Assembly: GCA_963663385.2 (NCBI GenBank)
Contig: CAXXXD010000001.1
Coordinates: 32,001 to 96,000, forward strand
DNA: 64,000 nucleotides
From: Oceanispirochaeta sp.
Lineage (GTDB): Bacteria > Spirochaetota > Spirochaetia > DSM-2461
Direction of reading: 5' to 3'
In this document: piece by piece, positions 1 to 61,098 of the stretch
Numbering within the stretch: position 1 is the first letter of the stretch
How the letters are laid out: the number at the start of each line of letters is the position of its first letter
Notes under the pieces: generated by a model
Databases searched by the model: none
What the model saw: the letters and a program-made list of their open reading frames with translations, nothing else
What the model was told of the DNA's origin: nothing
Translations under genes and position numbers: made by a program

Positions 1-1499
1 ATACAGTACAACAACCACTGTGTCCGGACCTTTTCCGTACCCCGTAAAGTAAAGCGATTCAGCTTTTTCATTCCGGCAATATGTCCGAATACAGGTTCTA
101 CCGTACTCATCCGTTTTGCATAAACTGATCGTCCATAGGGCGTATCAATTTTCTCCTTCATACCGGCCATGGGATTGCTCCCTTTTCCATCCGGCACTTC
201 CTTCAGTATGGCAACCTGACGGGCCTTTGTCGTTTCCTTTCTTATACATTTTGAACGAAGTTTACAGTCACGACAATTGCGTATATGCCCTTGATAGGAC
301 TTTCCGGTATACCGACCGTCATTGCTTCTGAAGTTGGGGGATTTCAGCCACATGGCATGACCGGCAGGGCAGATCAGTTGGTTGGTTGCCGTATCCATAT
401 AAAAGTCTTCCGGACTAAAATAGTGTTTTCCTTTTTCCGGTTTCCAGTTGGCGACTTTCTTTTTGTATCTGCCGGCATCCTGGAAGGCAACATGCCTTTT
501 CCTGAACTGATTGTCCGGGATATAGGCATCGATCTTCTTCTCGCAGATCATCTGCATGTTCTTTTTATTATGGAATCCTGTATCCGCTGTTATGGTGACA
601 TTGTTATAGATGTGGTCATCTATGTGAGATTCTTTGCAGCTCTTATCAATCCCCTCAAGTATCTCTGTTAGGTGTCCTGATTCGTTTACATCACCGTATG
701 TATCGGCAAATATAATTAATTGATGCTTGTCGTCTACTGCAGCAATGCCATTATATCCCTGTATAACGCCATGTCCGGTGGACATTTTAGCGCTTTCGTT
801 ATCAACTATATTGCTTTTAATGGGCTGATCCTGACTCCCGAAACGGTCATAATGGGTATCAAGCCATTTGTAGATTTTTTCTGTTTTTGCCTTTAGCTTT
901 TTGATGGCTTTCTTTTCTTTTTTACGCTGCTCTTTATCTTCCCAACTGGCATCCGTATTCTTGTGTTTTTCAATCAGATAGTTTACGGATTTCTCTATTT
1001 TCTTTGTTTTGGCAAATAGTTCCGCTTTGGTTCCGCTCCATTCCTTTGAACAGTTTGAGGAGATCTTGCAGCCGTCAATGGCAAACATGTTTTTGCCGAT
1101 CAGTCCCTGTGTGTAGCAAACAGAGAGTATCATGGTAAATAGGGTTTGGCACTCTTTATGACGGGAAGAGATAAAATCGGCAATGGTTGTAAAGTGGGGT
1201 CTGGAATCGGCGGCTAGCGCCATACAGACGATATTCTCCCGGCATAACTGTTCAATTTTTCTGCTGCTGTTTATGCCTTTTGAATAGGCGTAAAGGACTA
1301 TTTTTAAGAGGATGGCAGGGTCGTAGGCGGGAGCTCCGGTTTCATCATTTTCGTAGTGGTTTTCAAAAACTGACATATCAATTTGATTGTCTATCAGATG
1401 GCATAATGTATATTCGAATGTTCCTGGTAAAATCTGTTTTTTAAAGCTTACGGGGATCATCATTGTCTGGGTATAAGAATACTCTTTATATCTGGCCAT
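1..1499 (-). CDS. IS1182-family DDE transposase (3' end truncated by window edge; absent from ORF track)
   Basis: Hand translation from ATG 1499 with GGGAGG RBS: MARYKEYSYTQ...GAPAYDPAILLKIVLYAY...SSRKIE...FAIDGCKI...QGYN...ADTGF...CPAG...VEPVFGHI...RFTLRG; frame appears open to position 1. Confidence 0.9.
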   Translation of the reverse strand, partial: MARYKEYSYTQTMMIPVSFKKQILPGTFEYTLCHLIDNQIDMSVFENHYENDETGAPAYDPAILLKIVLYAYSKGINSSRKIEQLCRENIVCMALAADSRPHFTTIADFISSRHKECQTLFTMILSVCYTQGLIGKNMFAIDGCKISSNCSKEWSGTKAELFAKTKKIEKSVNYLIEKHKNTDASWEDKEQRKKEKKAIKKLKAKTEKIYKWLDTHYDRFGSQDQPIKSNIVDNESAKMSTGHGVIQGYNGIAAVDDKHQLIIFADTYGDVNESGHLTEILEGIDKSCKESHIDDHIYNNVTITADTGFHNKKNMQMICEKKIDAYIPDNQFRKRHVAFQDAGRYKKKVANWKPEKGKHYFSPEDFYMDTATNQLICPAGHAMWLKSPNFRSNDGRYTGKSYQGHIRNCRDCKLRSKCIRKETTKARQVAILKEVPDGKGSNPMAGMKEKIDTPYGRSVYAKRMSTVEPVFGHIAGMKKLNRFTLRGTEKVRTQWLLYC

Positions 1500-1578
1500 T
1501 ATTGAAAACCTCCCTTTTATAGAATTTTACCATGTTTTGGCTGAGAGCTGTAGAAAAGGTGACTTTTTCTACAGTCTC
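1..1578 (-). mobile_element. IS1182-family insertion sequence (left part; right end lies outside the window)
   Basis: Terminal sequence GAGACTGTAGAAAAAGTC (minus strand, 1578-1561) upstream of a transposase ORF; directly abuts the GTT of an attC site. Confidence 0.85.
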
Positions 1579-1692
1579 AACGCCCGCATCAGCTGCAATT
1601 TTGTCCCGCAGGGTTGGCGCAGATTTTGAAATGAGCGAAGCGACTTCAAAATCTGTGACAAAAAAATTGTCAGTTGCATGCGTTTGTTCTAC
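1579..1692 (-). other. Integron attC site (attC-1), R' box interrupted after GTT by the IS
   Basis: Minus strand: R'' GTAGAAC, 5-nt spacer, L'' CATGCAAC (extra G) ... L' GCTGATG, 5-nt spacer, GTT; central perfect 11-bp stem CAGATTTTGAA/TTCAAAATCTG; lies ~55 bp after the ATPase stop. Confidence 0.85.
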
Positions 1693-1746
1693 AGTGTCGA
1701 CCAGTTACCTTGTTATATTTGTAATAGCTTTAGGTCATTAATATCA

Positions 1747-3591
1747 CTATTCAATAAATCCACGTCTATCACCTTCTGTATTACCGCAAAAATATATGAA
1801 ATTAATTTTATTAATAATTTTCTGCTGAGGAGTTTTGTTATCAAAAACGATAATCTGCCTATCTTCGCTTGTATCTGATAGATAATCAAAAAATCGATCT
1901 TGAATATCTTCACTTATTTCATCATTAGTTTCTCGTAGAGCATTCTTCCCATGATAGGTTGTTAAAGGGGAATCTAAAACAATTAGAGGATTAAATGATA
2001 TTCCTTTTTCAACGACCCAATCTAGTATAGAGATTAACAACGCAGAGTATGATATTGCTCTGAATCCTTTTCCAAAACTCTTTCGAGTTTTTCCAGAAAT
2101 TGTGTAATCAAAAGTTCTATAACCAGTATCAAAGGTAATTGATTCCCAACCTGGATAACCAAATCCTTCTAAAATGGAAGATAATTTTGTACAAAAATCT
2201 TTTATATGAAGAAATTCTTCCGAATGTTCAGAGTCAGGCTTTGATTTCCCTTTTTCAATTTTCTCATTTAATTCAGCTTCTTTTTCAAATAAATAGTTTA
2301 TTCTTTCAGTAAGAATTGTAACCTTATTGGAAATAATTTGATTTTGTTCAAATCTTTCTAATTTTTCCTTAAATGGTATTATCTTTTCATTATTATGCTT
2401 TTTCTTTTTAACTGCCTCTATCTTACTTTCAGACAATACACTCAACTCTGAATTAATATCCAATACTTCTTTTTCTAAATTAACAATCGATTCACTAATA
2501 TCATTTTTTTTATTGGATATTTTTTTGTATTCTGCTTCAATAGATTCATTAAATACTTCTTCATCAAAATCAGAATCAAGTTCTGATGTAGTAATTTCAC
2601 TATCACAAATTGGACATGCTACAGTATTCAATTGAGAAATCAAGCTATTACCTTCTGACACAAATTGCATTCGTTCTAAATCTGAATTATAGTGCTCAAG
2701 TAATAACTTAAAACGATTGATTAGTTCTTTCTTGAATTCCTTTTTATTCTCATTTTCAAGAATGTCATCATTTATCTTCATTATTTCTTTATTGATATCG
2801 CTAGATACAGTCAAGATTCCATCTATGTCTAGTTTTGTTTTGTTGATAACTTGAGAATAATCGGTACCATCATCGAGAAGAGCTTTTTTAGCAGAAAGAG
2901 CCGTGATTTCCCTATTTGTTTCATCTCTCTCTGAAATGATGAACTCAATTTGACCTAATATATGAGTTTTCTTTTCCTTTTCAATTAAAGGGTTAATAAA
3001 ATTGCTATCATCCGTCCCGGATAATATATATCTAAATAGTGATTGATAAAAAGTTTGATCTGGATATTGACCAGTAGCATAAATAGGTGACTTTTCAGTG
3101 ATAATTCTATCCTCTGGGATAACAGTAAATTTCCTTAAGTCTCTAAAACTAATTTTCTTCTTCTCTGTTTTTTTCTTTTTAAATTCTTTGTTATACATAC
3201 CGCATGTTTTTAATAAGTAGACAGACAAATTATTTTCAGAAGAGGAAGAATGGTTTAACAGAAGCTTTTCTTCTTTTTTCGTATTATCATAGTTTTCAAA
3301 AGTACATTCTTTAATATAAACATCTGTATTTTTGATGTTTCTATATATGGTTAGTGGTTTTTCTTTATATGTGCTTATTTGTAGATAAAAATCTTCATAT
3401 CCAATCGCTTCAGGAATTTCTTTTGGATTTTCACTTCTTCCCAATAAGAAATCTATACACGAAAAAGCGTATGATTTCCCTGTATCTGAAACACCAGAAA
3501 TTAAATTAAATCCTTTTTTAAATTCTAATTGAGATTTTTTGTTTTGAGTTCCAATAACAACTAGTTTTTTTATATAGAATCCATCAAGCAT
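1747..3591 (-). CDS. lmuB: SMC/Rad50-like ABC ATPase of ABC-three-component (Lamassu) system
   Basis: Walker A GVSDTGKS, long coiled coil with CPIC zinc hook, signature-like SFGKG, Walker B LIVLDSP; 8-nt overlap with upstream gene. Confidence 0.85.
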   Translation of the reverse strand: MLDGFYIKKLVVIGTQNKKSQLEFKKGFNLISGVSDTGKSYAFSCIDFLLGRSENPKEIPEAIGYEDFYLQISTYKEKPLTIYRNIKNTDVYIKECTFENYDNTKKEEKLLLNHSSSSENNLSVYLLKTCGMYNKEFKKKKTEKKKISFRDLRKFTVIPEDRIITEKSPIYATGQYPDQTFYQSLFRYILSGTDDSNFINPLIEKEKKTHILGQIEFIISERDETNREITALSAKKALLDDGTDYSQVINKTKLDIDGILTVSSDINKEIMKINDDILENENKKEFKKELINRFKLLLEHYNSDLERMQFVSEGNSLISQLNTVACPICDSEITTSELDSDFDEEVFNESIEAEYKKISNKKNDISESIVNLEKEVLDINSELSVLSESKIEAVKKKKHNNEKIIPFKEKLERFEQNQIISNKVTILTERINYLFEKEAELNEKIEKGKSKPDSEHSEEFLHIKDFCTKLSSILEGFGYPGWESITFDTGYRTFDYTISGKTRKSFGKGFRAISYSALLISILDWVVEKGISFNPLIVLDSPLTTYHGKNALRETNDEISEDIQDRFFDYLSDTSEDRQIIVFDNKTPQQKIINKINFIYFCGNTEGDRRGFIE

Positions 3592-4099
3592 TTATTGTCA
3601 CTCCTCGGAATAGTGGCTCATTTACAAATTCATTTCCCCAGTTTTCAATATTTTTATTTATGTATTTATCTAAGTCTATCTCTGTATATAATTCGAATTT
3701 TGCTGTTATCCATCTTATTCTATCTTTCAACTTTTCTGTATATTCACTTCTAAAATGCTCAAGAAATGGACTGAGTAATTCTGTTTGAGTATAAAAGATT
3801 CCTTTTTTATTCATTTCAACCTGTAAGAGTTCTTTTGAAATCATTTTATTCAATCCAGCCCGAACTGCTTTTCTTTTTATTAACAATTGTGTAGAACGGT
3901 AGGGGGCTTCGGGATGCAGGTTTTTCGGGCCACCAATATCTTCTGTGAAAAGAATAAGATAATCAAAAGAAATTATTTGGTTTAAGGAAAGTGGCTTGTT
4001 AAACCCGTTTATTATAAATAAAGATCTTAACCCTAATTCCAGTGAATGATTAAATAATTGGTTATTTTTATAGTAAGAAAGCATTATTCTTTTACCCAC
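3584..4099 (-). CDS. lmuC: ABC-three-component middle component (LmuC-like); alternative start 4084 via TAATG overlap
   Basis: ~170 aa, FNxxLELGLRSL...FDYL motif typical of ABC-3C middle components; position between effector and ATPase. Confidence 0.75.
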   Translation of the reverse strand: MGKRIMLSYYKNNQLFNHSLELGLRSLFIINGFNKPLSLNQIISFDYLILFTEDIGGPKNLHPEAPYRSTQLLIKRKAVRAGLNKMISKELLQVEMNKKGIFYTQTELLSPFLEHFRSEYTEKLKDRIRWITAKFELYTEIDLDKYINKNIENWGNEFVNEPLFRGVTINA

Positions 4100-5166
4100 C
4101 TTATTTTTTTATCATTGACCAAATGATGACATATACCTTCTTTATCTTGCACTTTTATTTCATAAAAAAGTGGATTGTTATTGAATGAACCTCTTTTTGC
4201 TTCTTTTATTGCTTCTTTCAGTCTAATAAAACCATTCTCAAAATCTGATTCAACAATATCAATGATCAAGCTAAAGATTTCATCTTTTAATTCTTCAAAA
4301 GAATTACTATTATACGGTAGCTCATCTCTACTGAATTGATACAATGAATCCGCAATGTAAAAACTATCCCGTTGTCTTTGAAAATGATTAAGCAATTCTT
4401 GTTTATCAGAAATATCTTCTATACTGGAAATAAATCTATTAAGATAATCTGAATAAGCAGCAAATATTTCTCTAATATAAACCAACTCATTCTTTTCTAT
4501 ATCTTTATTTGCCTTTGGCAGTTCTTCTCTTGTTTTATTTAAGCCTCCACCAAACCATCTAGAAAAGAAAGGTGTCTGTCTAAATTGATCAATGAAAGTA
4601 TTTGGCTCAAGCCAGTCTATAATGGAAAAATTGAATGTATCGAAATATTTTAATATCTCACCTTCTAACTTTATATTTTCTTTCGTTGTAATTCCTTTTT
4701 CACATTTATCAGCCCAATTGTTTTTTAATTCCTGTTTCAATTTTTCAGGGTTTTCTATAAGTCCTAATAATTTTGGACCTATTCCCTTAGGTGAAACAAA
4801 ATAGTATTTTCTTGGAACTGAATAATCTTTATTAAAAGTATAGTAAATTAATTTACCGAGCTCGATATAAATTTCTGCGGGTGAAAGCATAGATGAATAG
4901 TGCTTACATTGATAAAGATCCCAAACTTGCTTCTCTTCATTGACTATTGCACATACATCCCGGCCTTTATCACCAGCTCCCCCAACACCATAGACTTTTA
5001 TATACTGTTTTGTCACATGATAATGTGCCCATTGTAGGACTAATTCCTCATATTGATCTTCGTCAAGAGCTTCAAGTATCTGATTTGGTTTCAATACAGG
5101 ACCTAATAGTATTTCACTGTTTGATAACCGAGAAATATTTTTTGGTTTTTCTAGTTCTGTAAACAT
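4084..5166 (-). CDS. lmuA: Lamassu/ABC-3C effector: N-terminal Mrr-like PD-(D/E)xK nuclease plus ABC-3C C-terminal domain
   Basis: YEEL...GGAGDKGRDV...YQCKHY nuclease motifs; C-terminal GICHHLVNDKKIRW; GAGGT RBS. Confidence 0.8.
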   Translation of the reverse strand: MFTELEKPKNISRLSNSEILLGPVLKPNQILEALDEDQYEELVLQWAHYHVTKQYIKVYGVGGAGDKGRDVCAIVNEEKQVWDLYQCKHYSSMLSPAEIYIELGKLIYYTFNKDYSVPRKYYFVSPKGIGPKLLGLIENPEKLKQELKNNWADKCEKGITTKENIKLEGEILKYFDTFNFSIIDWLEPNTFIDQFRQTPFFSRWFGGGLNKTREELPKANKDIEKNELVYIREIFAAYSDYLNRFISSIEDISDKQELLNHFQRQRDSFYIADSLYQFSRDELPYNSNSFEELKDEIFSLIIDIVESDFENGFIRLKEAIKEAKRGSFNNNPLFYEIKVQDKEGICHHLVNDKKIRWVKE

Positions 5167-5315
5167 TTAATGTTTCTACCTCATTTACATGACTATTTAT
5201 AATCGATTATTAAGCAACTCTCCCACTGGGATATTCTCTAAATTCATTCTTTCAAAGGACAACTTAAATTATGTAAAAATATATCACTTTTTCACAACAT
5301 AATTAATTTGCATCT

Positions 5316-5490
5316 GTAGAACGCCAAAATATGCTGCGGAGCGGCCTGGCCGAAGGACAGGTACAGGCGCTTTTCTTGCAGACTTATTTTAAACAGTAAT
5401 TTGTTTTTAAGAAAGAACTATTTATCAGCATTCTGTATCTCTGCAAGAAATGTGATCTGTAGCGACGACAGTATCATTTTCTTGTTATGT
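5316..5490 (-). other. Integron attC site (attC-2), 175 bp
   Basis: Minus strand: R'' ACATAAC, spacer AAGAA, L'' AATGATAC (extra G) ... L' GCATATT, spacer TTGGC, R' GTTCTAC; internal perfect 11-bp stem TTTCTTGCAGA/TCTGCAAGAAA. Confidence 0.82.
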
Positions 5491-5818
5491 CTACAGCATT
5501 TTGTAAATCACCGATGCCATATCAGGCAAGAATATCTTAATAAACGTAGGTGAAGGCGAATTCCCTTATTTTCACTTCTGCCAGCCGCAACCGGCGTCAA
5601 AGATTGATAATCAGTGTAGTGTGAGCATCAATCAACCCGTATCAAAACCCTAAAACCTACTAAATCATCTGGCAATTATGAAAGAACCAGAAGTACAAAA
5701 TGTGTTCGATATAACTTATTATCTCTTGAACAAGGTAATCCCAAAATCCATAGAATTACCCTGCACCCCCGCAGCATAACTGTCAATTCTAACAATTCCA
5801 CTGACACTCCCAGAGCAC

Positions 5819-6919
5819 TCATTCAACTAGTTCAAAATCCGGATTGAAACCCAAAGTCATAACCACCGACCCATTATATGAACAGGGAATCCCGGCTGAT
5901 GTATCACTCAAATCCAAAGTAATATCAGCATCATCATAGGAAATACCGGAAATAGTAATACCGGCACATTGAAGAATAATCGGATATGTTACTCCATCAT
6001 TGTAGTTATACCACGATTCACATACACTTGAGCCGGGATCTTCACAGATCCAACCCAACCTATTACTTCCAACAAAATCAACGGTATACACTTCACCTTC
6101 ATGGGTGGCACTCCAGGCCGTACCTGCTAGCTTATCAGGAAATCCCTCAACGTATTCCATTGTGTAACTATTCTCCAGATACTCCACAGTAACAGTACTG
6201 CCCGAACAGGAATAACTAAAACTTTTAACATCTCCCGAACGTTCCATAACATTGAGAGTATTCCCATCAATTCCAATAATTACACCATAGATATTTGCCG
6301 TATATAAAGCATCATGAAAATCTATTCTGGTCCGGCTATAGTGATTGCATCCAAAAAACCCAACCCCGTCTGTTATCCATAATGAGTTTTTCAATTCCAC
6401 CGGTGCCGACTGCACCCTGTGAAAAGTAAAGGAGACATCTGAGGGATCTTTCAATATCATGGTATTTTCATCCGGAAAAGATGCCGTAAAATCCATATCT
6501 GCAGTCGTATCCATTGTAACCGTCAGATCACCGTCAGCCGGCATAGGGATGGTAGCATCTACTTCATAAGCATCATCTTCGTAGTCGTACTTAATCTCTG
6601 AATCAGTAAATTCGATCTCCCAGTACACCCCTGAACCGTAATGGCACCAGTAGCTATCTGCATAATCAGAAAAACTTACCGAAGGCGTAACCACAACCGG
6701 ACTATCATCCTGCGTATTCGAATCATCACTGCTCTGATCCGAACTGGCATCAGTAGAATCACTCGTATTATTTTCATCCTGCGCCTGATCGGCAGAATCA
6801 TCCAGAACCTGCTCCGTACTATCCTCTTTATCTTTACTGCTCTTTGAAGCAAAAGGATTCTCACAGGAAACTAATAAAATCAGAAATAAACCCAGTAAAA
6901 TGGCAGTTGTACGCCTCAT
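5819..6919 (-). CDS. Hypothetical lipoprotein with Ser/Asp-rich linker
   Basis: Signal peptide with lipobox LVSC, low-complexity S/D/Q tract, beta-rich C-terminal part; AAAGGAG RBS. Confidence 0.75.
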   Translation of the reverse strand: MRRTTAILLGLFLILLVSCENPFASKSSKDKEDSTEQVLDDSADQAQDENNTSDSTDASSDQSSDDSNTQDDSPVVVTPSVSFSDYADSYWCHYGSGVYWEIEFTDSEIKYDYEDDAYEVDATIPMPADGDLTVTMDTTADMDFTASFPDENTMILKDPSDVSFTFHRVQSAPVELKNSLWITDGVGFFGCNHYSRTRIDFHDALYTANIYGVIIGIDGNTLNVMERSGDVKSFSYSCSGSTVTVEYLENSYTMEYVEGFPDKLAGTAWSATHEGEVYTVDFVGSNRLGWICEDPGSSVCESWYNYNDGVTYPIILQCAGITISGISYDDADITLDLSDTSAGIPCSYNGSVVMTLGFNPDFELVE

Positions 6920-7119
6920 GATGTAAAGCTCCTTTCAGTTGTGCTGTCCCACTGCCTCAATCGGGCAGAGTATTCTGCGCAACAAAAGTATACACCCAAT
7001 CAATGATTCATAAAGTCATAAAATTCCTTTTTTTGGTCATATGCTCCTATTTTGATACTAACTTTAGTTAGTATATGGAGGAATTCTGCTATCACCTGTT
7101 AAGCATTATTCAGAAATCC

Positions 7120-7509
7120 TTAACGAATAAACACCGCAGGAGAAACACCGTATTTTTCGGACAGCTTCCGGATATGCCCCAGATTCAGCTCCCTTTTCCC
7201 GTTTAAAATCTCGCTGATTACGGACTGGGTGGCCACATCGGCAAGATCAGCCTGCCTGTGATTATGGTTTTCCATCAGGTGCTTCAGCATATCAACAGGA
7301 GAAACCGGTTCTACCGGATAGTGTTCATCCTCATATTTTCCTATCATGCCGGTAATATAGTCAATAATCGGTTCCAGGTCCGACTCCCCCGCTTCCATTC
7401 GGTCTGTCAGGGCTTCCAGCTCTTCAATAGCCCTGTCATTTTCTTCATCTGTGGAGATTCTGAATTTCAAAAGGAAATCGCTTACAACTTTTTCAACACC
7501 CATACTCAT
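7120..7509 (-). CDS. higA: HigA-type antitoxin (HTH-XRE); start moved to ATG 7509
   Basis: PVDMLKHLME...QADLA...QSVISEILNGKRELNLGHIRKLSEKYGVSPAVF; AGAGG RBS next to higB stop. Confidence 0.88.
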   Translation of the reverse strand: MSMGVEKVVSDFLLKFRISTDEENDRAIEELEALTDRMEAGESDLEPIIDYITGMIGKYEDEHYPVEPVSPVDMLKHLMENHNHRQADLADVATQSVISEILNGKRELNLGHIRKLSEKYGVSPAVFIR

Positions 7510-7519
7510 AAACAACCTC

Positions 7520-7804
7520 TTAACAGTATTTTTTCGAATACTCTGCATGGGTCAGGAAATCTCTGATAAATACAGTCTTCCCCCATGTATACCTGACAAT
7601 CAGCCGATAGGCATTACCTTTTAAGTTGATACAGACAAGATCTGAACCCTTTATACTGTCGGCAGAGGGATAAACCTTCCGCAATTCTACAATGGAGGAG
7701 AAGGATGACCAGTAATGAACGGCTAACCATCCCCTCAATCCTTTTTCCGCTTCCGGGTATCGCCTGATGTAACTTTCTACAGTTTTCCTCTTTATGATTG
7801 TCAC
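7520..7804 (-). CDS. higB: HigB-type toxin (RelE superfamily mRNA interferase)
   Basis: W...ELRKVYPSAD...INLKGNAYRLIV...FIRDFLTHAEY; toxin-before-antitoxin order. Confidence 0.88.
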   Translation of the reverse strand: MTIIKRKTVESYIRRYPEAEKGLRGWLAVHYWSSFSSIVELRKVYPSADSIKGSDLVCINLKGNAYRLIVRYTWGKTVFIRDFLTHAEYSKKYC

Positions 7805-7809
7805 ATTTA

Positions 7810-7838
7810 ATTATCGCATATTGCGATACTCCTTTCAA
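7810..7838 (-). promoter_or_regulatory. higBA promoter with overlapping palindromic operator
   Basis: TTGAAA-N17-GATAAT, 5 nt before GTG start; TATCGCA-N3-TGCGATA palindrome at 7812-7828 overlapping spacer and -10. Confidence 0.7.
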
Positions 7839-8046
7839 GTGCTGTTTTCTGCAATGGATGAGACTCCTGGATCAATTATAGGAACTCCAACGTCCAAAAC
7901 AACATTGCTGCTTCAAGTTATCCTATAAATTCTCTATTCCGCTCAGTTATCATTGGAGAGACAGTTAGCCCTCCGGGAATTGACACACTCCCCCCGGACA
8001 GCTAACGTTACGATAGAAACACTCCCCCGGTAATAGGAGATAAAGA

Positions 8047-8760
8047 ATGACACCCAGTAAAAAAGCAGATGAAATGACCGTGAAGGAACTGGCTTCGTAT
8101 ATTGACCAGTCCGTGCTGAAACCGGAATTCACGGAAGAGGATATAAAAAAATACATACGGGAGGGCATCGACTACGGCTGCGCCACCGTGTGTATCAACC
8201 CCAGCGCCCTGGACCTGGCAGCCAAAATGACCGCCGGAACCGCTACGGGCATCTGCGTGGTCTGCGACTTTCCCTTCGGCCAGTCCACCACGGCTTCCCG
8301 TCTGGAGCAGGCGGAAGCCTATTGTAAACGGGGGGATGTGGCCGAACTGGATATCGTAGCCAACTACGGACACATAAGAAGCGGCCGGTGGGACCTGGTG
8401 GAGAACGATCTGAAAGCTGTCACCCAGGTATGCCACCGGTACGGAACAGCCGTAAAAGTCATACTGGAAACAGACGCCCTTACCATGGATCAGATTGCCA
8501 GGGGAACCGAAGCGGTCGCTGCCTCGGGGGCGGACTTCGTCAAATCCTCCACAGGCTTCTACACCGGCGGGGAAAGCGTCGGCGCCACAGTGGAGGTTGT
8601 AAAAGCCATGATGGCAGCCGCCGGCGGCCGGGTAAAGGTAAAAGGCTCCGGTGGCATCCGCACACGGGAACACTTTCTGAAGCTGATCGACATGGGCATA
8701 GACCGCATGGGTGTCGGCTACAGGTCGACACCGGTTGTGCTGGATATGCCGTCCGTATAA
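8047..8760 (+). CDS. deoC: Deoxyribose-phosphate aldolase
   Basis: IDQSVLKP, CVVCDFPFG, KVILET, ADFVKSSTGF, VKGSGGIRT motifs. Confidence 0.93.
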   Translation: MTPSKKADEMTVKELASYIDQSVLKPEFTEEDIKKYIREGIDYGCATVCINPSALDLAAKMTAGTATGICVVCDFPFGQSTTASRLEQAEAYCKRGDVAELDIVANYGHIRSGRWDLVENDLKAVTQVCHRYGTAVKVILETDALTMDQIARGTEAVAASGADFVKSSTGFYTGGESVGATVEVVKAMMAAAGGRVKVKGSGGIRTREHFLKLIDMGIDRMGVGYRSTPVVLDMPSV

Positions 8761-8770
8761 GCCCCCCCAT

Positions 8771-8801
8771 AGGCCCGCACCCGACGCGGGCCTGTCTCTT
8801 T
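8771..8801 (+). terminator. Probable intrinsic terminator after deoC
   Basis: AGGCCCGC-loop-GCGGGCCT followed by pyrimidine/T-rich tail. Confidence 0.55.
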
Positions 8802-8821
8802 ATTAAGGCGAGATTGTTCCT

Positions 8822-9700
8822 TCAGAGACGGGACCGGATAAAGGCGATAAAATCCTCCCGGAAGGGAGAAACCGACTCTTTTCCATAGACAAAATACATC
8901 TCCCTGACCAGAGCCCCCGTTGAAAAGGGACGGGTCTTTATGGTTCCCAGCTGTCTCTCCTTCTCTACGGCCCGGGAAGACAACACCGACCAGCCGAATC
9001 CCGATTCCACCAGGGATTTGATGGCGGAGAGGCTGCCTACCTCCAGAACAGGGGGCGGCAGTTCCAGATCCTTGTTTATCCTGTACTGTTCCCATCTGTA
9101 TCTGGTTCCCGACCCCTCTTCTCTCAGGATCAGACGGCAGTTTCCCAGCTCCCGGGGTGAGATCGGCTCTTTTTCATCCGGAATGGCCGAAGCAGGCCCG
9201 ATAAGGATCATTTCATCCTCCAAAAAGAGTTCGGAGCCGTAGGGTTCCCTCCTGAAGGGGCCTTCCACCAGAGCCAGGTCCAGCTCCCCCCGTTCCAGCT
9301 GAGCCAGAACAGATACGGTATTCTCTATTAGGAGGCTCAGTTCCAGATGGGGATTCTTCAGGCCGTACTCGGCCAGGAGAGGAGGGAGAATAAACTCGCC
9401 TATGGTAAGAGTCGCTCCCAGCCTATAGGTCCTGCGGCCGCCGCTGAGGGGAGCCAGCTCCCTTTCCGTACGGCGGGCAAGCCCCACGGCCTCCCGGGCG
9501 GCGCATTCCAGGATCCTGCCGGCGTCATTCAGAACAAGACGGCGCCCTGCATGGTTGAACAGGGGAATATTATACTCGGCCTCCAGAGCCTTTAGCTGCT
9601 GTGAAACGGCGGGCTGAGTCAGCCCGAGTTTATCCGAGGCCTTATGAAGGGTTCCTTCATCGATAACCGTCAGGAAGGTTCTGATTTTTAGGTCAATCAT
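8822..9700 (-). CDS. LysR-family transcriptional regulator (CysL/YeiE-like)
   Basis: HTH LTQPAVSQQLKALE; LGATLTIGEF, ILREEGSGTR; divergent from YeiH-type gene. Confidence 0.9.
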   Translation of the reverse strand: MIDLKIRTFLTVIDEGTLHKASDKLGLTQPAVSQQLKALEAEYNIPLFNHAGRRLVLNDAGRILECAAREAVGLARRTERELAPLSGGRRTYRLGATLTIGEFILPPLLAEYGLKNPHLELSLLIENTVSVLAQLERGELDLALVEGPFRREPYGSELFLEDEMILIGPASAIPDEKEPISPRELGNCRLILREEGSGTRYRWEQYRINKDLELPPPVLEVGSLSAIKSLVESGFGWSVLSSRAVEKERQLGTIKTRPFSTGALVREMYFVYGKESVSPFREDFIAFIRSRL

Positions 9701-9835
9701 GGTTCCAAGGATAGAAAAGGCAGGGATTAAAGTAAAGATATTTTTATATTTACATTAAAAAATATAAATATTATTTAATTATCAATTCTGATACTCTCTC
9801 TTCCATACCAGAACAACAGTTGGAGGAGAGGGATA

Positions 9836-10813
9836 ATGAAGAGCGTTTTACCGGGACTGGGACTATGTATTGTGATGGGACTGGCGGCCTTTGCAGGAGC
9901 GGAACAGGTCCCCCTGGGGAGCGTTACCCTGGTACTGCTGGCGGGTATTCTTATGAGGAATTTTATAATCCGGGACGGAAAAGCAGTCGAAATCCTGTCG
10001 CCGGGGATGAACTTCTGTGAAAAACGGATTCTAACCTATGCGATTGCCCTGATGGGGGTGAATCTGGATTACAGGATTCTGAAGGATCTGGGATTTGAAA
10101 CCCTGATCCTGATTCCCGCCGCCCTGGTATTTACGGTCGGGCTGGCCCTTGCCATGGGACGGCTTTTCAGACTGCCCGTCAAACTGAGCCTTCTTCTGGG
10201 AGTCGGAAATGCCGTCTGCGGGACTTCTGCGATTGCGGCAGCTCAGGGAACGATAAATGCCAAAGAGGAGCATGTGGGGCTTTCGGTTGCTGCGGTCAAC
10301 CTTTTCGGAACCCTGGGTATCTTTCTCCTGCCCTTCCTGGCCAATCTGTTCTTCCCCTCCGATCCTTCGCAGAAGGGAATTCTCATAGGCAATACGCTTC
10401 AGGCCATAGGGCAGGTCACAGCCGCAGGATTCTCCCTGGGGGATATTACGGGTCAGACAGCCACGGTGGTCAAGATGGGGCGGATACTCCTTATCGGACC
10501 GGTGGTTCTGATCTTAAGCTTCTGGAATCCCCCAGCCCGAAAGGAAAACAGAACCGCTCCCGGAATCCCCGGCTATATCATTTTCTTTCTTCTCCTCTCC
10601 CTTGTCGGATCAACGGGCCTGCTCCCCGGCGAACTGACCGGGGTTCTGAAATATGCATCGAAACTGCTGCTTGTAACGGCTATGGCCGCCATGGGGCTGA
10701 AGATCAGATTCCGGGACCTTATACAGAAAGGCGGGACCGCTCTTTGTGTGGGCACTCTTGTCGTAACGGGACAGCTGCTTTTTTCCATTCTGATAATCCG
10801 TTTATTCTGTTAG
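9836..10813 (+). CDS. YeiH / putative sulfate exporter family membrane protein
   Basis: GNAVCGTSAIAA, ATVVKMGRILL motifs, many TM segments. Confidence 0.85.
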   Translation: MKSVLPGLGLCIVMGLAAFAGAEQVPLGSVTLVLLAGILMRNFIIRDGKAVEILSPGMNFCEKRILTYAIALMGVNLDYRILKDLGFETLILIPAALVFTVGLALAMGRLFRLPVKLSLLLGVGNAVCGTSAIAAAQGTINAKEEHVGLSVAAVNLFGTLGIFLLPFLANLFFPSDPSQKGILIGNTLQAIGQVTAAGFSLGDITGQTATVVKMGRILLIGPVVLILSFWNPPARKENRTAPGIPGYIIFFLLLSLVGSTGLLPGELTGVLKYASKLLLVTAMAAMGLKIRFRDLIQKGGTALCVGTLVVTGQLLFSILIIRLFC

Positions 10814-10923
10814 CTTCTCCGGATCGTAAAGCCCCCGGAAACAGCTGTCTTAATCGTTCCGTACCGGGGAATTCCCATCTGAATATCTGGCGAATTTCCT
10901 TACGCCCCTTATACTTATAATAT

Positions 10924-12888
10924 ATGGGGAATCAATCCGGATTCAGAATATTATTCCTCCTGATACTCCTTATGCCTTTCCTTGGGGCATGCGGAGACGG
11001 TAAGGCGGCAGACAGGGGAGCCTCCCCCCCGGCTTCCGGAAAATCGGATTTGGCAAAAGTGCTCTATGTGGATTCCTACAGCAGGGAGTACCTCTGGTCG
11101 CAGAAAATCCGGGAGGGACTGTTCAACGCACTGGGATTCACAACGGATAAAGAAGGACTCCCCCTGGAGGGGACAGGGGCCGTACGGCTGAAAATCCTGG
11201 AGATGGAGACCAAGAGGAATACGTCCGAAGAGTTTCTGGTCCGGGCCGGTACAAAAGCACGGGATGAGATTGAATCGTGGAAGCCCGACCTTGTTATCTG
11301 CAGTGATGACAACGCGGCCAAATACCTGATAGCCCCTTATTATATCGGATCGGATATACCCTTTGTCTTCTGCGGTATAAATCATGACGCGGCCGAATAC
11401 GGATTCACCGCCGAAAATATCACGGGCATCCTGGAAATACATAACGCCGTCAGCCTTGTCGAAATCCTTAAAAACTACACCGAAGGGACCAGGATTGCCT
11501 ATCTGGCGGGAGACAACATCTCGGGGCGGAAAATCGGGTTTTCCGTTCAGGAACAGCTGGAAGAGGAGGTGAACCAGGTCTATGTGAACAGCTACAGGGA
11601 ATGGAAGGAACAGTACATTGACCTGCAGGATAAGGCTGACATGCTGCTGCTGGAAACGGTTCACTATTTTCCCGACTGGGACGGGAACCTGAAGGCTCTG
11701 GAACGGTTTGTAAGCGATAAGACGCGCATTCCTTCCGGATCATGGGACAATACCCTTAAAGCCGTAACCCTTGTAACCATGGAAAGGACAGGAGAGGAGC
11801 AGGGTGAATGGGCGGGGAACACAGCATTACGGATTCTGAATAACGAAATAAAGGTCAATGAGATTCCCATCGCCAGAGGGAATAGGACTGCGGTATACCT
11901 GAACATGAAGATGGCCCGGGACCTCGGGATCCTGTTTCCCCCGGAGTTGCTGGAGATTGCCCACCTGACAAATGAGCTGGATACCATGAGGAAGGTACTT
12001 TATGTCAATTCCTACCATGAAGGGTACGTCTGGAGCGATGATGAGGAAAAAGGCTTTTTCAAGGCGATGGACCGCAGTGATCTGCCGATAGACCTGAAGG
12101 TATTCAGGATGGATACCAAACGGAATGATTCGGAAGAGTTCATTCGCAGAAAAGCGCTGGAAGTAAAAGCCCTGATTGATACATGGCACCCGGAGGTGGT
12201 CGTCGGCAGTGATGACAATTTTCCCAAATACGTGATAGCCCCCTATTACAGGAATACGGAGACCCCATTTATTTTCTGCGGGGTTAACTGGGATGCCTCG
12301 GAATACGGACTCCCCTGTTCCAATGTTACGGGGATGGTTGAAATCGACCCAATAGATAAGGCGATTGACCTCCTCGCCACGTTCAGTCGGAGCCGGAAAA
12401 CGGGTTTTCTGGGACTTGATGTTTTTTATGTACGGAAGATTATGGAGATATCTGAAAAACAGCCGGGAGTGGACTATGATCTGGTTCTTCTCGTTAAGGA
12501 TTTCGAGAGCTGGAAGACCGCATACAAACGCATGCAGGAAGAGGTCGATATCCTTATAATCACCAGTCCCTACGGACTTAAGGGTTATAATGAAAAAGAG
12601 GCTGTTCAATTCATTCACAATAATGCAGAGATTCCCTCGGGGGTAACCGTTGACGGAGAAATACAGTATGCCCTTCTGGGAATATCGAAAATTGCGGAAG
12701 AACAGGGCTGGTGGGCAGGGAACACGGCTCTGGAAGTCCTTTCCGGCCGCTCTGTATCCGACATACCTGTTGCCACCAATACTCAGATTAAATATCAGCT
12801 GAATATGGACCTGGCCAACAGGATGGGCATCGTATTTTCCCAGAACCTCCTTGAAACATCAGAGATATGGAGAAGTGAGAACGAATGA
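10924..12888 (+). CDS. Lipoprotein with two tandem ABC-type substrate-binding domains
   Basis: Lipobox LGAC; duplicated halves KVLYVDSY.../KVLYVNSY..., PFVFCGIN/PFIFCGVN, EEQGEWAG/EEQGWWAG. Confidence 0.75.
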   Translation: MGNQSGFRILFLLILLMPFLGACGDGKAADRGASPPASGKSDLAKVLYVDSYSREYLWSQKIREGLFNALGFTTDKEGLPLEGTGAVRLKILEMETKRNTSEEFLVRAGTKARDEIESWKPDLVICSDDNAAKYLIAPYYIGSDIPFVFCGINHDAAEYGFTAENITGILEIHNAVSLVEILKNYTEGTRIAYLAGDNISGRKIGFSVQEQLEEEVNQVYVNSYREWKEQYIDLQDKADMLLLETVHYFPDWDGNLKALERFVSDKTRIPSGSWDNTLKAVTLVTMERTGEEQGEWAGNTALRILNNEIKVNEIPIARGNRTAVYLNMKMARDLGILFPPELLEIAHLTNELDTMRKVLYVNSYHEGYVWSDDEEKGFFKAMDRSDLPIDLKVFRMDTKRNDSEEFIRRKALEVKALIDTWHPEVVVGSDDNFPKYVIAPYYRNTETPFIFCGVNWDASEYGLPCSNVTGMVEIDPIDKAIDLLATFSRSRKTGFLGLDVFYVRKIMEISEKQPGVDYDLVLLVKDFESWKTAYKRMQEEVDILIITSPYGLKGYNEKEAVQFIHNNAEIPSGVTVDGEIQYALLGISKIAEEQGWWAGNTALEVLSGRSVSDIPVATNTQIKYQLNMDLANRMGIVFSQNLLETSEIWRSENE

Positions 12889-15182
12889 AACTGACCGATC
12901 GATTCACATTCAGGCTTCTATCTCTTGTTATCGGGACCTTTCTTATATCCATGGTGACCCTTTTTATAATGGCCGAGCAGCAGCTGAATAAAATTATCGA
13001 TAAAAGCCAGACCTCCATTTTCGAGGAAAAAATCGATATTATCCTGGGAGAACTGCACAGACAGGACAGAAGGCTGCAGAGTACCGGCCTGGTTGAGGCC
13101 TATGAAAGGGATTTTAAGGAGAGGACCCTAACCTGGTTCTCCGAAAGTTTCTATGAGGACAATGTGTCGGAGATCTATCCTTTTATCATAGACAGAAACC
13201 TGAGTATTATCCTTCACCCGAACCTGCCGCCCGGGGAGGGATTCGATGCTCCTCAGGGAATTGCAGACTCCGGATCCGGATCCTTCACAGCCGCATTCAA
13301 CAATGAAAAGAAGTGGTACATATACAAACTGTTTGAACCGTGGGAGTGGATTATAACCTACGCGATTCCGGTTAATGAAAAGTACAGGGATGTCATTGCC
13401 TTTCGAAGGATGCTGTTACTGCTGATGACTGGTCTGACTGCGGTTTCCGTATTGGCTCTTGTTATCCTGATGATGAACTTCACAAAGCCGATCCTCTTTT
13501 TAACAGAGACAGCCCACAATATTGCCAAAGGAGATCTGGAACAGCCCATCACCCTGGATTCAAGAGATGAAATCGGCAGTCTGGCCAGCAGTTTCAAAGA
13601 GATGCAGGCTTCTGTAAAACAGAAGATCGAGGACCTGAACCTTGAGATAATCGAACGGCAGAAGGTGGAAAAGGAATTGAACCTGGCCAGGAATCTGATA
13701 GCCGGGATCATCAATTCCATGCCCTCTGTCATGATTGCAGTAGACCCGAAAGGTCGGGTAACTCAATGGAACGGGAAAGCAGTCCGCCAGAGCGGAATAT
13801 CCTCTGCGGATGCCCTGGGCGTCCCTATCCTGGAAGTGCTTCCCGGACTGAAGCCGGAAATGCCCCTGATACACAAGGCTATGGAATCGGAAGAGCCCCA
13901 GTTTATCCTCCAGAAAGAGATGATTGGAGAATCCGGCACAACCTATAATGATATAACCATTTATCCTCTTACCGGACAGGGACTGGAGGGAGCTGTTATC
14001 CGTATTGATGATGTAACGGAAAAAAAGCTGTTTGAAGAGCAGTTATCCCAGTCCCGCAGAATGGATGCCATAGGTCAGCTGGCCGGCGGGGTAGCCCATG
14101 ATTTCAATAATATGCTGGCCGGAATTACCGGAGCCGCCTCCCTGCTTCAAAGCTCTGCCTGGATTGACGATCCGGATGACCGGAAATTTATACAGATTAT
14201 TCTGGATGCGGCTGATCGGGCTTCCGAATTAACAGAAAAGCTGCTGACCTTCAGCCGGAAACAGACAAAATCATTTACCGTATTCAGTCTGCATGAAGTA
14301 ATTAATTCCAGCCTTGAACTTCTGGAAAGAACAATTGATAAAAAAGTAAAAATCCAGTATAAACCGAATGCACAGAACGAACTTCTGAAAGGTCGCTTTT
14401 TTTCCATCCAGAATGCCCTGATGAATCTGATAATCAACGCCTCACACGCCATGCCGGAAGGGGGGAGTGTCCGTATCACAACGGAAAACACCATCCTTCA
14501 AGACGCAGACTGCCGACACAGCCCCTTTGACCTTGTCCCCGGGCAATATATCAAAGTAATCATTGCCGATAATGGCACCGGGATAGCGCCGGAGAATCTG
14601 GAGAGAATATTCGAACCTTTTTTCACCACCAAAAAACACGGACAGGGTTCCGGACTGGGGCTCGCTTCTGTTTACGGAATTATGCAGAACCACAGAGGAG
14701 CCGTTACGGTAGAGAGTGTTCTCAAAAAGGGGACGACTTTTCTGCTGTATTTCCCCTGTACCGATGAAGGCAGGCAACAGACAGAAGTCCGTGATGAACA
14801 GAAACTGACAGGACATGGAAAGATCCTGTTAATTGACGATGAAGCGGTTGTCAGAAATACTGTCGAAAGTCTTCTGAAACAGATGGGGTATGAGATTATC
14901 TGTGCGGAAGATGGCAAGAGGGGACTGGAAATCTATCAGGCGCAGTCTGATCAGATTGATCTGGTTATAAGCGATATGATAATGCCGGGGTTAAGCGGCA
15001 GGGATGTTTTTTACAGGATTAAAGAGATAAACCGATCCTGTCCGGTTATTATCTCCTCCGGTTATACAAAGGATGAAAACCTGGACCAGCTTACAAACGA
15101 CGGACTTGCCGGATTTCTGCAGAAACCGTTCCGGAGAGATGAGCTGAACAGGATAATTTCTGCTGTAATCAGACCGAAATAA
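12885..15182 (+). CDS. Hybrid sensor histidine kinase (HAMP-PAS-HisKA-HATPase-REC)
   Basis: GGVAHDFNN H-box, FEPFFTTK, GSGLGL, C-terminal receiver LLIDDE...SDMIMP...KPF; ATGA overlap with upstream gene. Confidence 0.92.
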   Translation: MKLTDRFTFRLLSLVIGTFLISMVTLFIMAEQQLNKIIDKSQTSIFEEKIDIILGELHRQDRRLQSTGLVEAYERDFKERTLTWFSESFYEDNVSEIYPFIIDRNLSIILHPNLPPGEGFDAPQGIADSGSGSFTAAFNNEKKWYIYKLFEPWEWIITYAIPVNEKYRDVIAFRRMLLLLMTGLTAVSVLALVILMMNFTKPILFLTETAHNIAKGDLEQPITLDSRDEIGSLASSFKEMQASVKQKIEDLNLEIIERQKVEKELNLARNLIAGIINSMPSVMIAVDPKGRVTQWNGKAVRQSGISSADALGVPILEVLPGLKPEMPLIHKAMESEEPQFILQKEMIGESGTTYNDITIYPLTGQGLEGAVIRIDDVTEKKLFEEQLSQSRRMDAIGQLAGGVAHDFNNMLAGITGAASLLQSSAWIDDPDDRKFIQIILDAADRASELTEKLLTFSRKQTKSFTVFSLHEVINSSLELLERTIDKKVKIQYKPNAQNELLKGRFFSIQNALMNLIINASHAMPEGGSVRITTENTILQDADCRHSPFDLVPGQYIKVIIADNGTGIAPENLERIFEPFFTTKKHGQGSGLGLASVYGIMQNHRGAVTVESVLKKGTTFLLYFPCTDEGRQQTEVRDEQKLTGHGKILLIDDEAVVRNTVESLLKQMGYEIICAEDGKRGLEIYQAQSDQIDLVISDMIMPGLSGRDVFYRIKEINRSCPVIISSGYTKDENLDQLTNDGLAGFLQKPFRRDELNRIISAVIRPK

Positions 15183-15367
15183 AAAAGGGATCCCAGCCTT
15201 TCCGGCTAATCCGGCAGAGCCTCATTATGCTCAAATAGCCCGGTTTTTCTGAGAGACCGGCAGGATAGAGCGTAATGAGGCGGTTGCCCACCGGATTTAC
15301 AACCGGTTCAGAGTCTCCTTGAACCGGAGGAGAAAAGATCAGGCTTGAAGCCTCCTGGCTCTGACAG

Positions 15368-16135
15368 TCAGTGCTGCAGAATCTGGGAGAGAAAAAGCTT
15401 GGTCCTGTCTTCTTTAGGGTTGTTGAAAATCTGATCGGGAGGCCCCTGCTCAACAATCCTCCCGTCATCAAAAAAGATGATTCTGTCGGCCACGGCCCTG
15501 GCAAAGGCTATTTCATGAGTAACCACCAGAAGGGTCATCTTCGAGTGGGCCAGCTCTATCATTACATCAAGAACCTCCTTGATCATTTCGGGATCCAGTG
15601 CCGAAGTCGGTTCATCAAACAGCATAATCTCCGGTTTCATCGCCAGAGACCGGGCGATTGCCACTCTCTGCTGCTGCCCTCCCGATAACTGGCCGGGATA
15701 CTTATGGGCCTGATCTTCAATCCCCACCCTCTTCAGAAGAGCCATGGCTGTGTCTCTGGCCTCCTCCTTAGGGACCTTCTTAACCCAGACCGGGGCCAGT
15801 GTTATGTTCTGTAAAACCGTAAAATGGGGAAAAAGATTGAAACTCTGAAAAACCATTCCCACCTCGGAGCGGATCGTATTAATGTTCTTAACATTATGGT
15901 TCATCTCGATATCATTAACAAAAAGCGTTCCTTTCTGGTGCTCTTCGAGATGATTGATCGTACGGATAAAAGTGGATTTACCCGATCCCGATGGTCCCAG
16001 GATAACCACAACCTCTCCTTTTCGAATTTCCACATCGATTCCTTTTAGAACATGGAAATCGCCATACCATTTCTGCAAGCCGCAGCTTTTTATTATTATT
16101 CCTTCATTCATATCATCAACTCTCTTATTTATCAT
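15368..16135 (-). CDS. aapP: Amino acid ABC transporter ATP-binding protein
   Basis: [28 protein letters not shown]. Confidence 0.88.
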
Positions 16136-17282
16136 GGTTCATTGAAGCTTCAATCTTCCGGCTCGTCCGGGAAATACTGAAGCAAAGGATGAAATATATC
16201 ATCGAAAGAAACAGGAGCACCTGCTGACTGTCGCTCATAAACTCCGGGTTGGCGGCGATAGCGGTTGAAATCCCCACCAGATCGAGGAGTCCGATAATGG
16301 AGATCAAACTCGTGTCCTTTACCATTCCGGTAAAACCGTTTACCAGGACGGGTATAATATTCTTGATGACCTGGGGCAGTATAATCAGCACCATGGACTG
16401 AAACCTGTTAAAGTTCATGGCATAGGCCGCCTCATACTGGGTTTTTGAAAGCCCCTGGAACCCGCCCCGGATATTTTCCGCCATATAGGCTGCATGAAAC
16501 AGTACGATTCCCGCCATGGCCCGCAGTAAAACTCCTACGGCAAGATTGGCCGGCAGGGCAAGAGGCAGAATCAGATAGCCCAGAAACAGCAGGGTGATAA
16601 GGGGCACTCCTCTGATTATCTCGATAACGCCGATGGAGAAGTACCTGATGACAAGCAGTTCCGACCGCCGTCCCAGGGCCAGGAATAATCCCAGAATAAA
16701 CGAGAGGATTATGGATGTTATGGAGATGATCATGGAAAGGAGAAGCCCTCCCCATAGATTTGTCGGGACAACAGGCAGAAATCCTTCAGGGCCGGTCAGC
16801 CCGCCTACGGCCAGGTACATATACGGTATAAAAAGAACCCATCCCACAGAGATGATAAGAAGGGATTTCCCGCGGGAGATAAACCGCCCCAGCAGGTAAC
16901 CGGCAGCCTGAAGAGCAGAGAGCCCCAGAAGGCAGAACCTTGCAGAAGGGGAAAACCCGAGCAAAGCCAGCAGGAGCGGTGCCAGGAGCAGAACCCTCGC
17001 TGCTCCTTTCAGGCCGTTCTTCAGCAGGCAGTATGAGACTCCCGCCAGAAAAGAGGCGACCATAAGGATGGACCAGACTCTCCAGAGCTGCTCAACAGGA
17101 TAGGCTCCTGTCAGAATAAGCTTGAGGTTTCTCGGAATGACATCCCAACTGACAGAAAAGAACCAGATGCCGAGAGACCGGATGACTTTTGACAGAAAGA
17201 AGATAAGAAAAAGGGTGATAACGCTGTTATACCATGTATTGAAAAGGTTCTCTTTAACCCGGATATAGAGTTTATTATTCAT
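16125..17282 (-). CDS. aapM: Amino acid ABC transporter permease
   Basis: [34 protein letters not shown]...QYEAA. Confidence 0.85.
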
Positions 17283-18470: not shown

Positions 18471-18481
18471 TGAAAGTCCTT

Positions 18482-18522
18482 AAAAAAGAAAACCGATAGA
18501 AACCAGGAATCTATCGGTTCTG
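18482..18522 (-). terminator. Stem-loop/terminator between aapJ and aapQ
   Basis: AACCGATAGA-loop-TCTATCGGTT followed by T-run on minus strand. Confidence 0.6.
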
Positions 18523-18533
18523 CTTGAATATTT

Positions 18534-19613: not shown

Positions 19614-19789
19614 AATATCTCCTTATAAATGATTTGCGCGCTGATCAATTCGCTTCAATAGGACCTGTTGTCAGAAATATTCCTGAAGATATGGTATCTG
19701 GTGTTTTTTTGAGCAGTCAAACAGAAAAGAATCGGGCCTGTTCGATAGTTACTTTAGTAATACATCAACCATGGGACCTGTGACTTAAG

Positions 19790-60605: not shown

Positions 60606-60642
60606 AAGTATATACCTCGTATACTGAATTCAGATAATTTTT

Positions 60643-60795
60643 CATAACAGGCAGGTTTTCTGGCTTACAGATCAGCAGCTGATTCCCCCTTCCCGGTTTC
60701 CCAGTGGCGAAAGGCATAAATACCCCGGAAACAGCTTCCCTGATTACAGCGGCGGGACCGCAGAGGCATCTCACCTCACTTCCCTATCCTGTATG
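60643..60795 (-). promoter_or_regulatory. Cobalamin riboswitch (btuFCD-cbiZ)
   Basis: AGGGAA..GAGGTGAGATGCCTC..CCCGCCGCTGTAA..GCCACTGGGAAACCGGGAAGG..AAGCCAGAAAACCTGCC. Confidence 0.92.
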
Positions 60796-60963
60796 ATGGA
60801 TTCTATGAAAATAAAGGGATACACTCTTTCCTGTCAATATTGTAATTCCATCATTCCCGAAAGATATAGTCATGCCCCAGGCTGAGTAATAATTTACAAA
60901 ATATCACCAAATAATTCATAGATAATCCCTTGAAGAGAGGCTTACAATACGAAATTACTTAAA

Positions 60964-61098
60964 CAATATTTCAGAGGAAGTCAGGTGAGAAACCTGCACG
61001 GACCCGCCACTGTAAGGGCGTGACGCTTTCCGCATAACCACTGGAACAATCCGGGAAGGGCGGAGGAGTAGACCCCGAGTCAGGAAACTCTGGTATTG
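60964..61098 (+). promoter_or_regulatory. Cobalamin riboswitch (lipoprotein-btuB operon)
   Basis: GAGGAA..CAGGTGAGAAACCTG..CCCGCCACTGTAA..CCACTGG..CCGGGAAGG..GAGTCAGGAAACTCTG. Confidence 0.92.

Follow-up and report, generated by a model that had tools for sequence, protein, structure and literature searches.

Positions 1581-5321 of the 64,000-nucleotide (nt) stretch of Oceanispirochaeta DNA analyzed here very probably constitute a true integron cassette of 3,741 bp, in which a Lamassu defense operon, lmuA-lmuC-lmuB, predicted to be a complete type II system, is joined to its own 114-nt attC site. The cassette would be the second in its array and would be served in trans by the integron integrase (IntI). 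The window, meaning the whole of this stretch, corresponds to C1:32001-96000 of a 5.31-Mb genome in four contigs (C1-C4) with a guanine-plus-cytosine (GC) content of ∼46-47%. A first-pass annotation, made from the letters of the window, had proposed that a three-gene Lamassu/ABC-3C system was packaged there between two attC sites. The features on which the argument turns are as follows.

1..1578, minus strand: window part of an IS1182-family insertion sequence (IS), full length 1791 bp (C1:31788-33578)
1581..1694, minus strand: attC of the Lamassu cassette, 114 nt (nhmmer E 2.7e-33)
1747..3591, minus strand: lmuB, predicted SMC/Rad50-like ATPase, 614 residues
3584..4099, minus strand: lmuC, predicted ABC-3C middle component MC2, 171 residues from GTG
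4084..5166, minus strand: lmuA, predicted effector, 360 residues
5167..5321, minus strand: AT-rich leader, 155 bp, starting with the TT of the crossover point (5321-5320)
5322..5491, minus strand: long attC of the preceding cassette, 170 nt
5322..5714, minus strand: cassette A, 393 bp, without an open reading frame (ORF), long attC included; first cassette of the array, with copies found by blastn
5715..5741, minus strand: attI-like site (…ACCTTGTTCAAGAGATAATAAG|TT) at the head of the array; the same sequence stands beside intI on C2

Inspection of the ends of the unit reveals that it spans G|TT to G|TT of two attC sites, to the base (the bar marks the crossover point). The attC of the Lamassu cassette consists of the R'' box CTGTAGAAC (1694->1686), an L''/L' stem and an R' box with its G at 1581 and its TT at 1580-1579, and the long upstream attC has the R'' box GACATAAC at 5491->5484 and its R' G at 5322. 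On the plus strand, GTTCTACAG at 1686-1694 and CTGTAGAAC at 5314-5322 are exact reverse complements, as had been proposed for the upstream R' box and the downstream R'' box. Homology does not run past the upstream GTT. Five other copies of the upstream cassette (one on C2, three on C3 and one on C4) are 98-99.7% identical to the window, and their likeness to it stops at about 5317-5322, i.e. at GTT; beyond this boundary the copies read GTTATAC or GTTATGT and the window reads GTTCTACAG. The downstream attC ends in ...GCGGGCGTT, followed by the IS. For this end, the first-pass annotation gave the right coordinate, 1581 being the G of G|TT, but the wrong R' box, GTTGAGA being GTT plus the end of the IS.

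The first bases of each cassette were compared with its own R'' box at six variable positions in the 12 distinct cassettes of which both ends are readable. Own pairs agreed at 6/6 positions in eight cassettes, at five in two, at four in one and at two in one, whereas 0/132 non-own pairs reached 6/6 and 15 reached five. The junction of the Lamassu cassette is 6/6 complementary to its own R'' box, and its sequence is one compensated pair apart from that of its nearest neighbor, at C2:1675171. This covariation of the 5' end with the R'' box is as expected for a once-circular unit and supports the circular origin suggested at first pass.

Since Rfam holds no family for these attC sites (window positions 1-9000 gave only five chance-level matches, at E 1.3 or worse), the sites were derived from the genome's own sequence. 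Further copies of the downstream attC's 3' half occur elsewhere in the genome; an nhmmer profile of seven copies recovered those seven at E 3.6e-28 or better in three arrays, and weaker matches brought the family to a fourth. Alignment of 10 short-type attC sites showed AAC and GTT to be invariant in all rows without an intron-cut R'' box, and RNAalifold yielded one long hairpin in which 22 of the 31 pairs are retained through two-sided changes. A covariance model was built from these 10 sites, with the AAC/GTT pairs added, and was run with filters off. Two sites in the window scored at E below 1. That at 1573-1693(-) obtained 112.5 bits, a score it owes to its membership of the training set, and that at 5314-5491(-), outside the training set, obtained 39.5 bits (E 1.9e-8). 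Apart from a partial self-match within the first site, the model detected no third attC between 1581 and 5321, in agreement with the two flanking sites of the first-pass annotation and none between; because the three genes overlap, an internal attC is also excluded by space.

Eight other loci searched with the same model gave 19 array-strand sites at E 8.3e-6 or better (21 with the window), together with three weak reverse or partial matches. The families of both flanking attC sites are represented in four arrays of this genome, in which attC sites measure 100-179 nt. The attC of the Lamassu cassette has a DNA fold z of -5.4 and shares 94% identity with C2:1678502-1678609, a site of the IntI-linked array. 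Given that one array adjoins a full-length IntI, the repeats can be regarded as the attC sites of a real integron.

The sole integron integrase of the genome is encoded at C2:1687729-1688955. It is full length and free of stops, scores 381 bits against TIGR02249 (cut-off 265) and adjoins one array, with intI divergent from the cassettes. The 27 nt at 5715-5741 of the window are the same as those bordering the first cassette next to intI (C2:1687455-1687481), and the attI-like sequence recurs at C4:1177605-1177638, making three attI-like sites to one intI; an attI-like core heads the arrays on C1 and C4, neither of which has an integrase close by. When the right flank of the window's array was searched for across the genus, no syntenic attI locus was found. 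Excision of the Lamassu cassette would be carried out by IntI acting in trans from C2. Recombination of the two G|TT points would produce a circle in which the R''/R' stem of the attC is perfectly paired, with the predicted junction ...GGGCG|TTCTACAG....

The three genes are all on the minus strand and overlap, lmuA and lmuC by 1-16 nt and the start of lmuB with the end of lmuC by 8 nt. The start of lmuC is more likely ATG 4084 than GTG 4099; the candidate ATG overlaps the lmuA stop as TAATG and has an AAGGTGG ribosome-binding site upstream. LmuA matched the PADLOC profile PDLC03852 (1.9e-102) and, at its C terminus, Pfam CTD6 (6.2e-38). LmuC matched Pfam PF20288 MC2 (5e-43) and PDLC03871 (3.9e-41), and LmuB matched PDLC03863 (8e-133), with a Pfam AAA_23 match below cut-off. 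The LmuB polypeptide contains a Walker A motif (GVSDTGKS) and a Walker B-like motif (LIVLD) and gave a weak match to the solved chain 9hqu_A (E 0.021). These profiles bear out the Lamassu/ABC-3C identity assigned at first pass, and indicate that lmuA-lmuC-lmuB is a complete type II Lamassu/ABC-3C system.

The N-terminal 226 residues of LmuA matched no Pfam family at E 10 or better, and the whole protein matched no PDB sequence at E 1 or better. Across 36 aligned LmuA sequences (relatives 39-64% identical to the protein of the window), Asp-66, Gly-68, Asp-70, Gln-86 and Lys-88 (D66, G68, D70, Q86 and K88) are invariant. An AlphaFold2 model of LmuA (pLDDT 91.1) returned the solved Lamassu LmuA nucleases (9nxx, 9hr5) as the top Foldseek matches, followed by Cap4 and MspJI, with a probability of ∼1, yet with TM-scores of just 0.26-0.30. 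Sequence and model together point to a PD-(D/E)xK-type nuclease as the N-terminal domain and CTD6 as the C-terminal domain.

The AT-richness noted at first pass is clear from the base composition. The cargo (1695-5321) has a GC content of 29.2%, even across lmuA, lmuC and lmuB (28-30%), compared with 46.5% in its own attC, 40.6% in the upstream attC and 49.7% at 8000-20000 of the window. The leader (5167-5321) is indeed 155 bp long and AT-rich (26.5% GC), and contains a GAGGT ribosome-binding site. For the promoter that the first-pass annotation suggested, there is one weak promoter-like match (TTGTGA-18-CATAAT, 5297->5268, 9/12 to consensus), and the 24 such matches in the scanned region are not above chance, 26.9 being expected from shuffled sequence. 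Transcription may begin in the leader or read through from upstream.

By analogy with the Lamassu mechanism described in PMC12663957 and the PDB titles of solved homologues, a LmuB dimer together with LmuC would keep LmuA inactive. A complex meeting the DNA ends of replicating phage would then release LmuA, and the freed LmuA would oligomerize and cut DNA, whereupon the infection would be aborted.

A second three-gene Lamassu cassette was found at C2:1680625-1685072, in second place within the intI-linked array. Its order is C-B-A, with LmuC of 230 residues (1.3e-68), LmuB of 655 residues (8.7e-135) and LmuA of 556 residues (9.2e-42); its GC content is 26.7%, it measures ∼4.58 kb without its resident group II intron, which splits its attC, and its own R'/R'' agreement is 6/6. 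The ATG of its lmuC lies inside the R' box (GTT|ATG), leaving a cassette without a leader. The two LmuB proteins are unrelated by BLASTP (E 0.021), while the attC sites of their cassettes are 94% identical. A Hachiman pair (HamA, 5.6e-144; HamB, 3.9e-135) forms a single two-gene cassette of 3.1 kb in a fourth array, and PDC-M11A/B likewise forms one single cassette.

Cassette A has no minus-strand ORF of 40 residues or more wholly inside it, and exists in at least six copies (window 5322-5714; C2:1685065-1687455; C3:727912-728313, 730634-733024 and 740154-742794; C4:1188327-1188723) and one variant of 84-86% identity. A copy stands immediately before six multi-gene cassettes: the two Lamassu, the Hachiman, the PDC-M11 and two whose ORFs are unnamed or partly named. 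It may possibly act as a promoter or landing pad; the scan gave no strong promoter match in it.

A 1,989-bp intron of the group IIC-attC type (5' GTACG..., 3' ...CCCGAT) is present in eight copies, six on C2 and one each at C3:732853 and C4:1180556. At least six of these sit between the G and TT of the R'' box of a bottom-strand attC, opposite to the cassette genes, an insertion as described for group IIC-attC introns (PMC3001079). The reverse transcriptase/maturase scores 401 bits against TIGR04416, and the intron RNA matches Rfam RF02001, RF01998 and RF00029.

The downstream attC of the Lamassu cassette is interrupted at G|TT by the 1,791-bp IS1182-family element, flanked by a GTT duplication. 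Its transposase ORF (3-1499) matches Pfam DDE_Tnp_1_6 and DUF772, and NF033551 (IS1182 family) gives 281.8 bits for a full copy, above its cut-off of 270. All five full copies (C1:31788-33578; C3:287670-289460; C3:734553-738490; C4:1180654-1182443; C4:1191853-1193642) are oriented alike with respect to the flank and lie between GTT...GTT, and four of the five are exactly at an attC R' crossover point. The transposase-proximal IS end carries a hairpin, CTGTAGAAAA-N7-TTTTCTACAG, the arms of which match the R''/R' boxes of the Lamassu cassette at 8/9 positions each. The IS end and these R boxes have CTGTAGAA in common, and the Lamassu R'' region is 15/20 identical to GTT plus the IS end, compared with 5-10/20 for 13 other attC sites. 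Papers retrieved on IS1182, attC and integrons included none addressing this, as judged by titles or abstracts. That the 9-mers are IS terminal repeats of a composite element was considered and rejected, their orientation being wrong and no IS sequence being present at 5322.

Neither of the two LmuB proteins has a relative at E 1e-5 or better in any of the 37 other genomes of the family, 22 of which are at least 90% complete. At the DNA level, just the attC part of the Lamassu cassette matches, in 12 of the 37. The cargo therefore appears to be specific to the species or strain and the attC type to be typical of the lineage, as is usual in sedentary chromosomal integrons (attC homogeneity is discussed in PMC4889954). 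In composition, too, the AT-rich cargo looks foreign and the attC host-like. One sister genome (G005, contig C107) has a 94%-identical attC after a type I restriction enzyme gene, represented by its C-terminal part (2.3e-189), and another (G010, contig C1) has a 91%-identical attC after an unnamed ORF of 358 residues. The best relatives in a large protein collection share 36% identity with LmuB and 64% with LmuA, the latter relative being encoded on a 3.2-kb contig. A search of species genomes for close LmuB relatives gave 337 pattern matches and 0 confirmed, and metagenome contigs contained no exact match to a 35-nt pattern from the leader.

Several points weigh against this reading of 1581-5321. 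No second copy, such as would attest directly to movement as a unit, was found in any collection searched. The attC model was made from this genome's own repeats and not from the curated model of IntegronFinder. There is no integrase on C1, and the window's array would be classed as an integrase-lacking attC cluster. In the 3' attC the bases that follow GTT are now those of the IS, which may weaken recombination, and a recent preprint (10.64898/2026.03.17.712381) reports that cassette size correlates negatively with recovery. That size relation, the IS at the crossover point and the placing of intI on another contig would also fit a fossil, i.e. an operon that entered as a cassette, is now fixed and behaves as an ordinary chromosomal defense island; the arrays are, moreover, full of IS1182, IS66 and IS21 elements and hold eight group II introns. 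This is possible, if on balance unlikely, for both G|TT points and the entire R''-L''-L' of the attC are intact and IntI is full length and stop-free, and the authors of IntegronFinder have argued that cassettes of integrase-less clusters can be mobilized in trans (PMC4889954).

Arrival by another route, through IS-mediated transposition or homologous recombination, would make the operon one that merely lies between two attC sites. It could draw on the IS abutting the operon and on the likeness of the IS end to the R boxes, but the boundaries fall at the G|TT of both attC sites to the base, the R'/R'' rule is obeyed by eight of the 12 cassettes and by no non-own pair, the 9-mers point away from the operon, opposite to IS terminal repeats, and there is no second IS end at 5322; we regard this route as very improbable. 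Fused cassettes are known in mobile integrons, and the operon might likewise have arisen by fusion of two or three single-gene cassettes after loss of the internal attC sites. The overlaps of 1-16 and 8 nt between the genes, the order A-C-B, which matches the name "LmuACB" given to solved type II systems in their PDB titles, the lack of any attC remnant with filters off and the uniform GC content over the three genes make such a fusion scarcely credible.

A broader and rather speculative proposal, to which we assign a low probability, is that the arrays of this genome make cassettes, and large ones, the introns or another local process joining whole operons to resident attC sites and the ORF-less cassette A serving as promoter or landing pad. 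The proposal draws on the association of foreign AT-rich operons (among them two unrelated Lamassu and the Hachiman) with host-type attC sites of ∼45% GC, on the same attC type following a type I restriction gene in a sister species, on the eight group IIC-attC introns at R'' boxes, and on the presence of cassette A before the six multi-gene cassettes, four of them named or candidate defense systems.

On the minus strand, the order of features is higB, a helix-turn-helix (HTH) gene, a 366-residue ORF, the attI-like site, cassette A, the Lamassu cassette and the IS, after which further cassettes lie beyond the window edge at C1:26773-31787. The genes preceding the array are these.

6919-5819, minus strand: ORF of 366 residues, no family found (no match in Pfam, NCBIfam or PADLOC)
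7548-7120, minus strand: HTH gene, antitoxin-like, 142 residues (PADLOC PD-Lambda-2_B, 7.7e-22)
7804-7520, minus strand: higB, HigB toxin, 94 residues (Pfam HigB_toxin, 1.3e-17)

The HigB toxin and HTH genes (7120-7804) are thereby placed between the core genome and the array. Elsewhere in the window, at 60633-61110, two cobalamin riboswitches (RF00174, 79-80 bits) stand divergently, back to back. The insertion of the IS at G|TT, the attI-like head with no integrase in cis, the second Lamassu cassette, the Hachiman cassette and the group II introns were absent from the first-pass annotation. Its assignment of the host to the spirochaetes agrees with a single marker, FlaA, the sheath protein of periplasmic flagella, which is present three times in the genome (best 254.6 bits) and in 0/14 control genomes.

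Defense systems in integron cassettes are already established (10.1101/2024.07.02.601686; 10.1101/2024.07.02.601719), and a later preprint (10.64898/2026.03.17.712381) cites Science 2025 versions of both preprints and a Nature Microbiology 2025 paper. This work of 2024-2025 presents integrons as stores of anti-phage genes, with size said to limit them to one- or two-gene systems. In the survey of complete RefSeq genomes by Darracq et al. (10.1101/2024.07.02.601686), the text states that the number in cassette systems "never exceeds 2 components", that the systems are streamlined and that long loci are absent. Because the surveyed cassettes had at most two components, the Lamassu cassette would be a new and oversized member of this group, and from its sequence it appears larger and more complex than the defense cassettes described so far. 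The literature found on integrons, Lamassu and cassettes describes, in the parts consulted, no three-gene Lamassu cassette, though the supplementary tables of Darracq et al. might contain one.

A full-size three-gene system of the SMC type would fit one cassette, and this genome has another of ∼4.6 kb as well as the Hachiman cassette of 3.1 kb. Provided that such units remain mobile, complex defense systems can be shuttled by integrons, and the clustering default of IntegronFinder, 4 kb or double the ∼2 kb of the "largest known cassettes" (PMC4889954), would be not far from the sizes that cassettes really reach. Cassettes that join foreign cargo to a resident-type attC also offer a natural case for the study of cassette origin.

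Among known systems, the sedentary-integron defense cassettes of Darracq et al. resemble the present one in being defense systems within cassettes of a defense-rich chromosomal array; here, by contrast, the components number three and are of ordinary length (597-624 residues in the nearest LmuB relatives and, among the matches listed, mostly 357-378 in LmuA relatives), and the host is a spirochaete and not Vibrio. The brc128 system of Kieffer et al. (10.1101/2024.07.02.601719) is also a Lamassu-type system in an integron cassette, but is described there as having two ORFs, as type 1-like without a Walker B motif and as carried by mobile integrons, whereas the present system is a putative three-gene type II system with MC2 in a chromosomal array. 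The type II LmuACB/DdmABC systems (9hr5, 9hqx, 9nxx, 9uxl) share the nuclease effector, middle component and SMC-like ATPase predicted here, although the sequences are distant, as the matches of LmuB to 9hqu_A and of LmuA to the PDB indicate. The chromosomal integrons of Treponema (PMC3607928) are likewise those of a spirochaete, with up to three genes reported between two attC sites, and differ in that their attC sites measure 63-68 nt in T. denticola, compared with 100-179 nt here, where intI is divergent from the cassettes and four arrays are found with one integrase.

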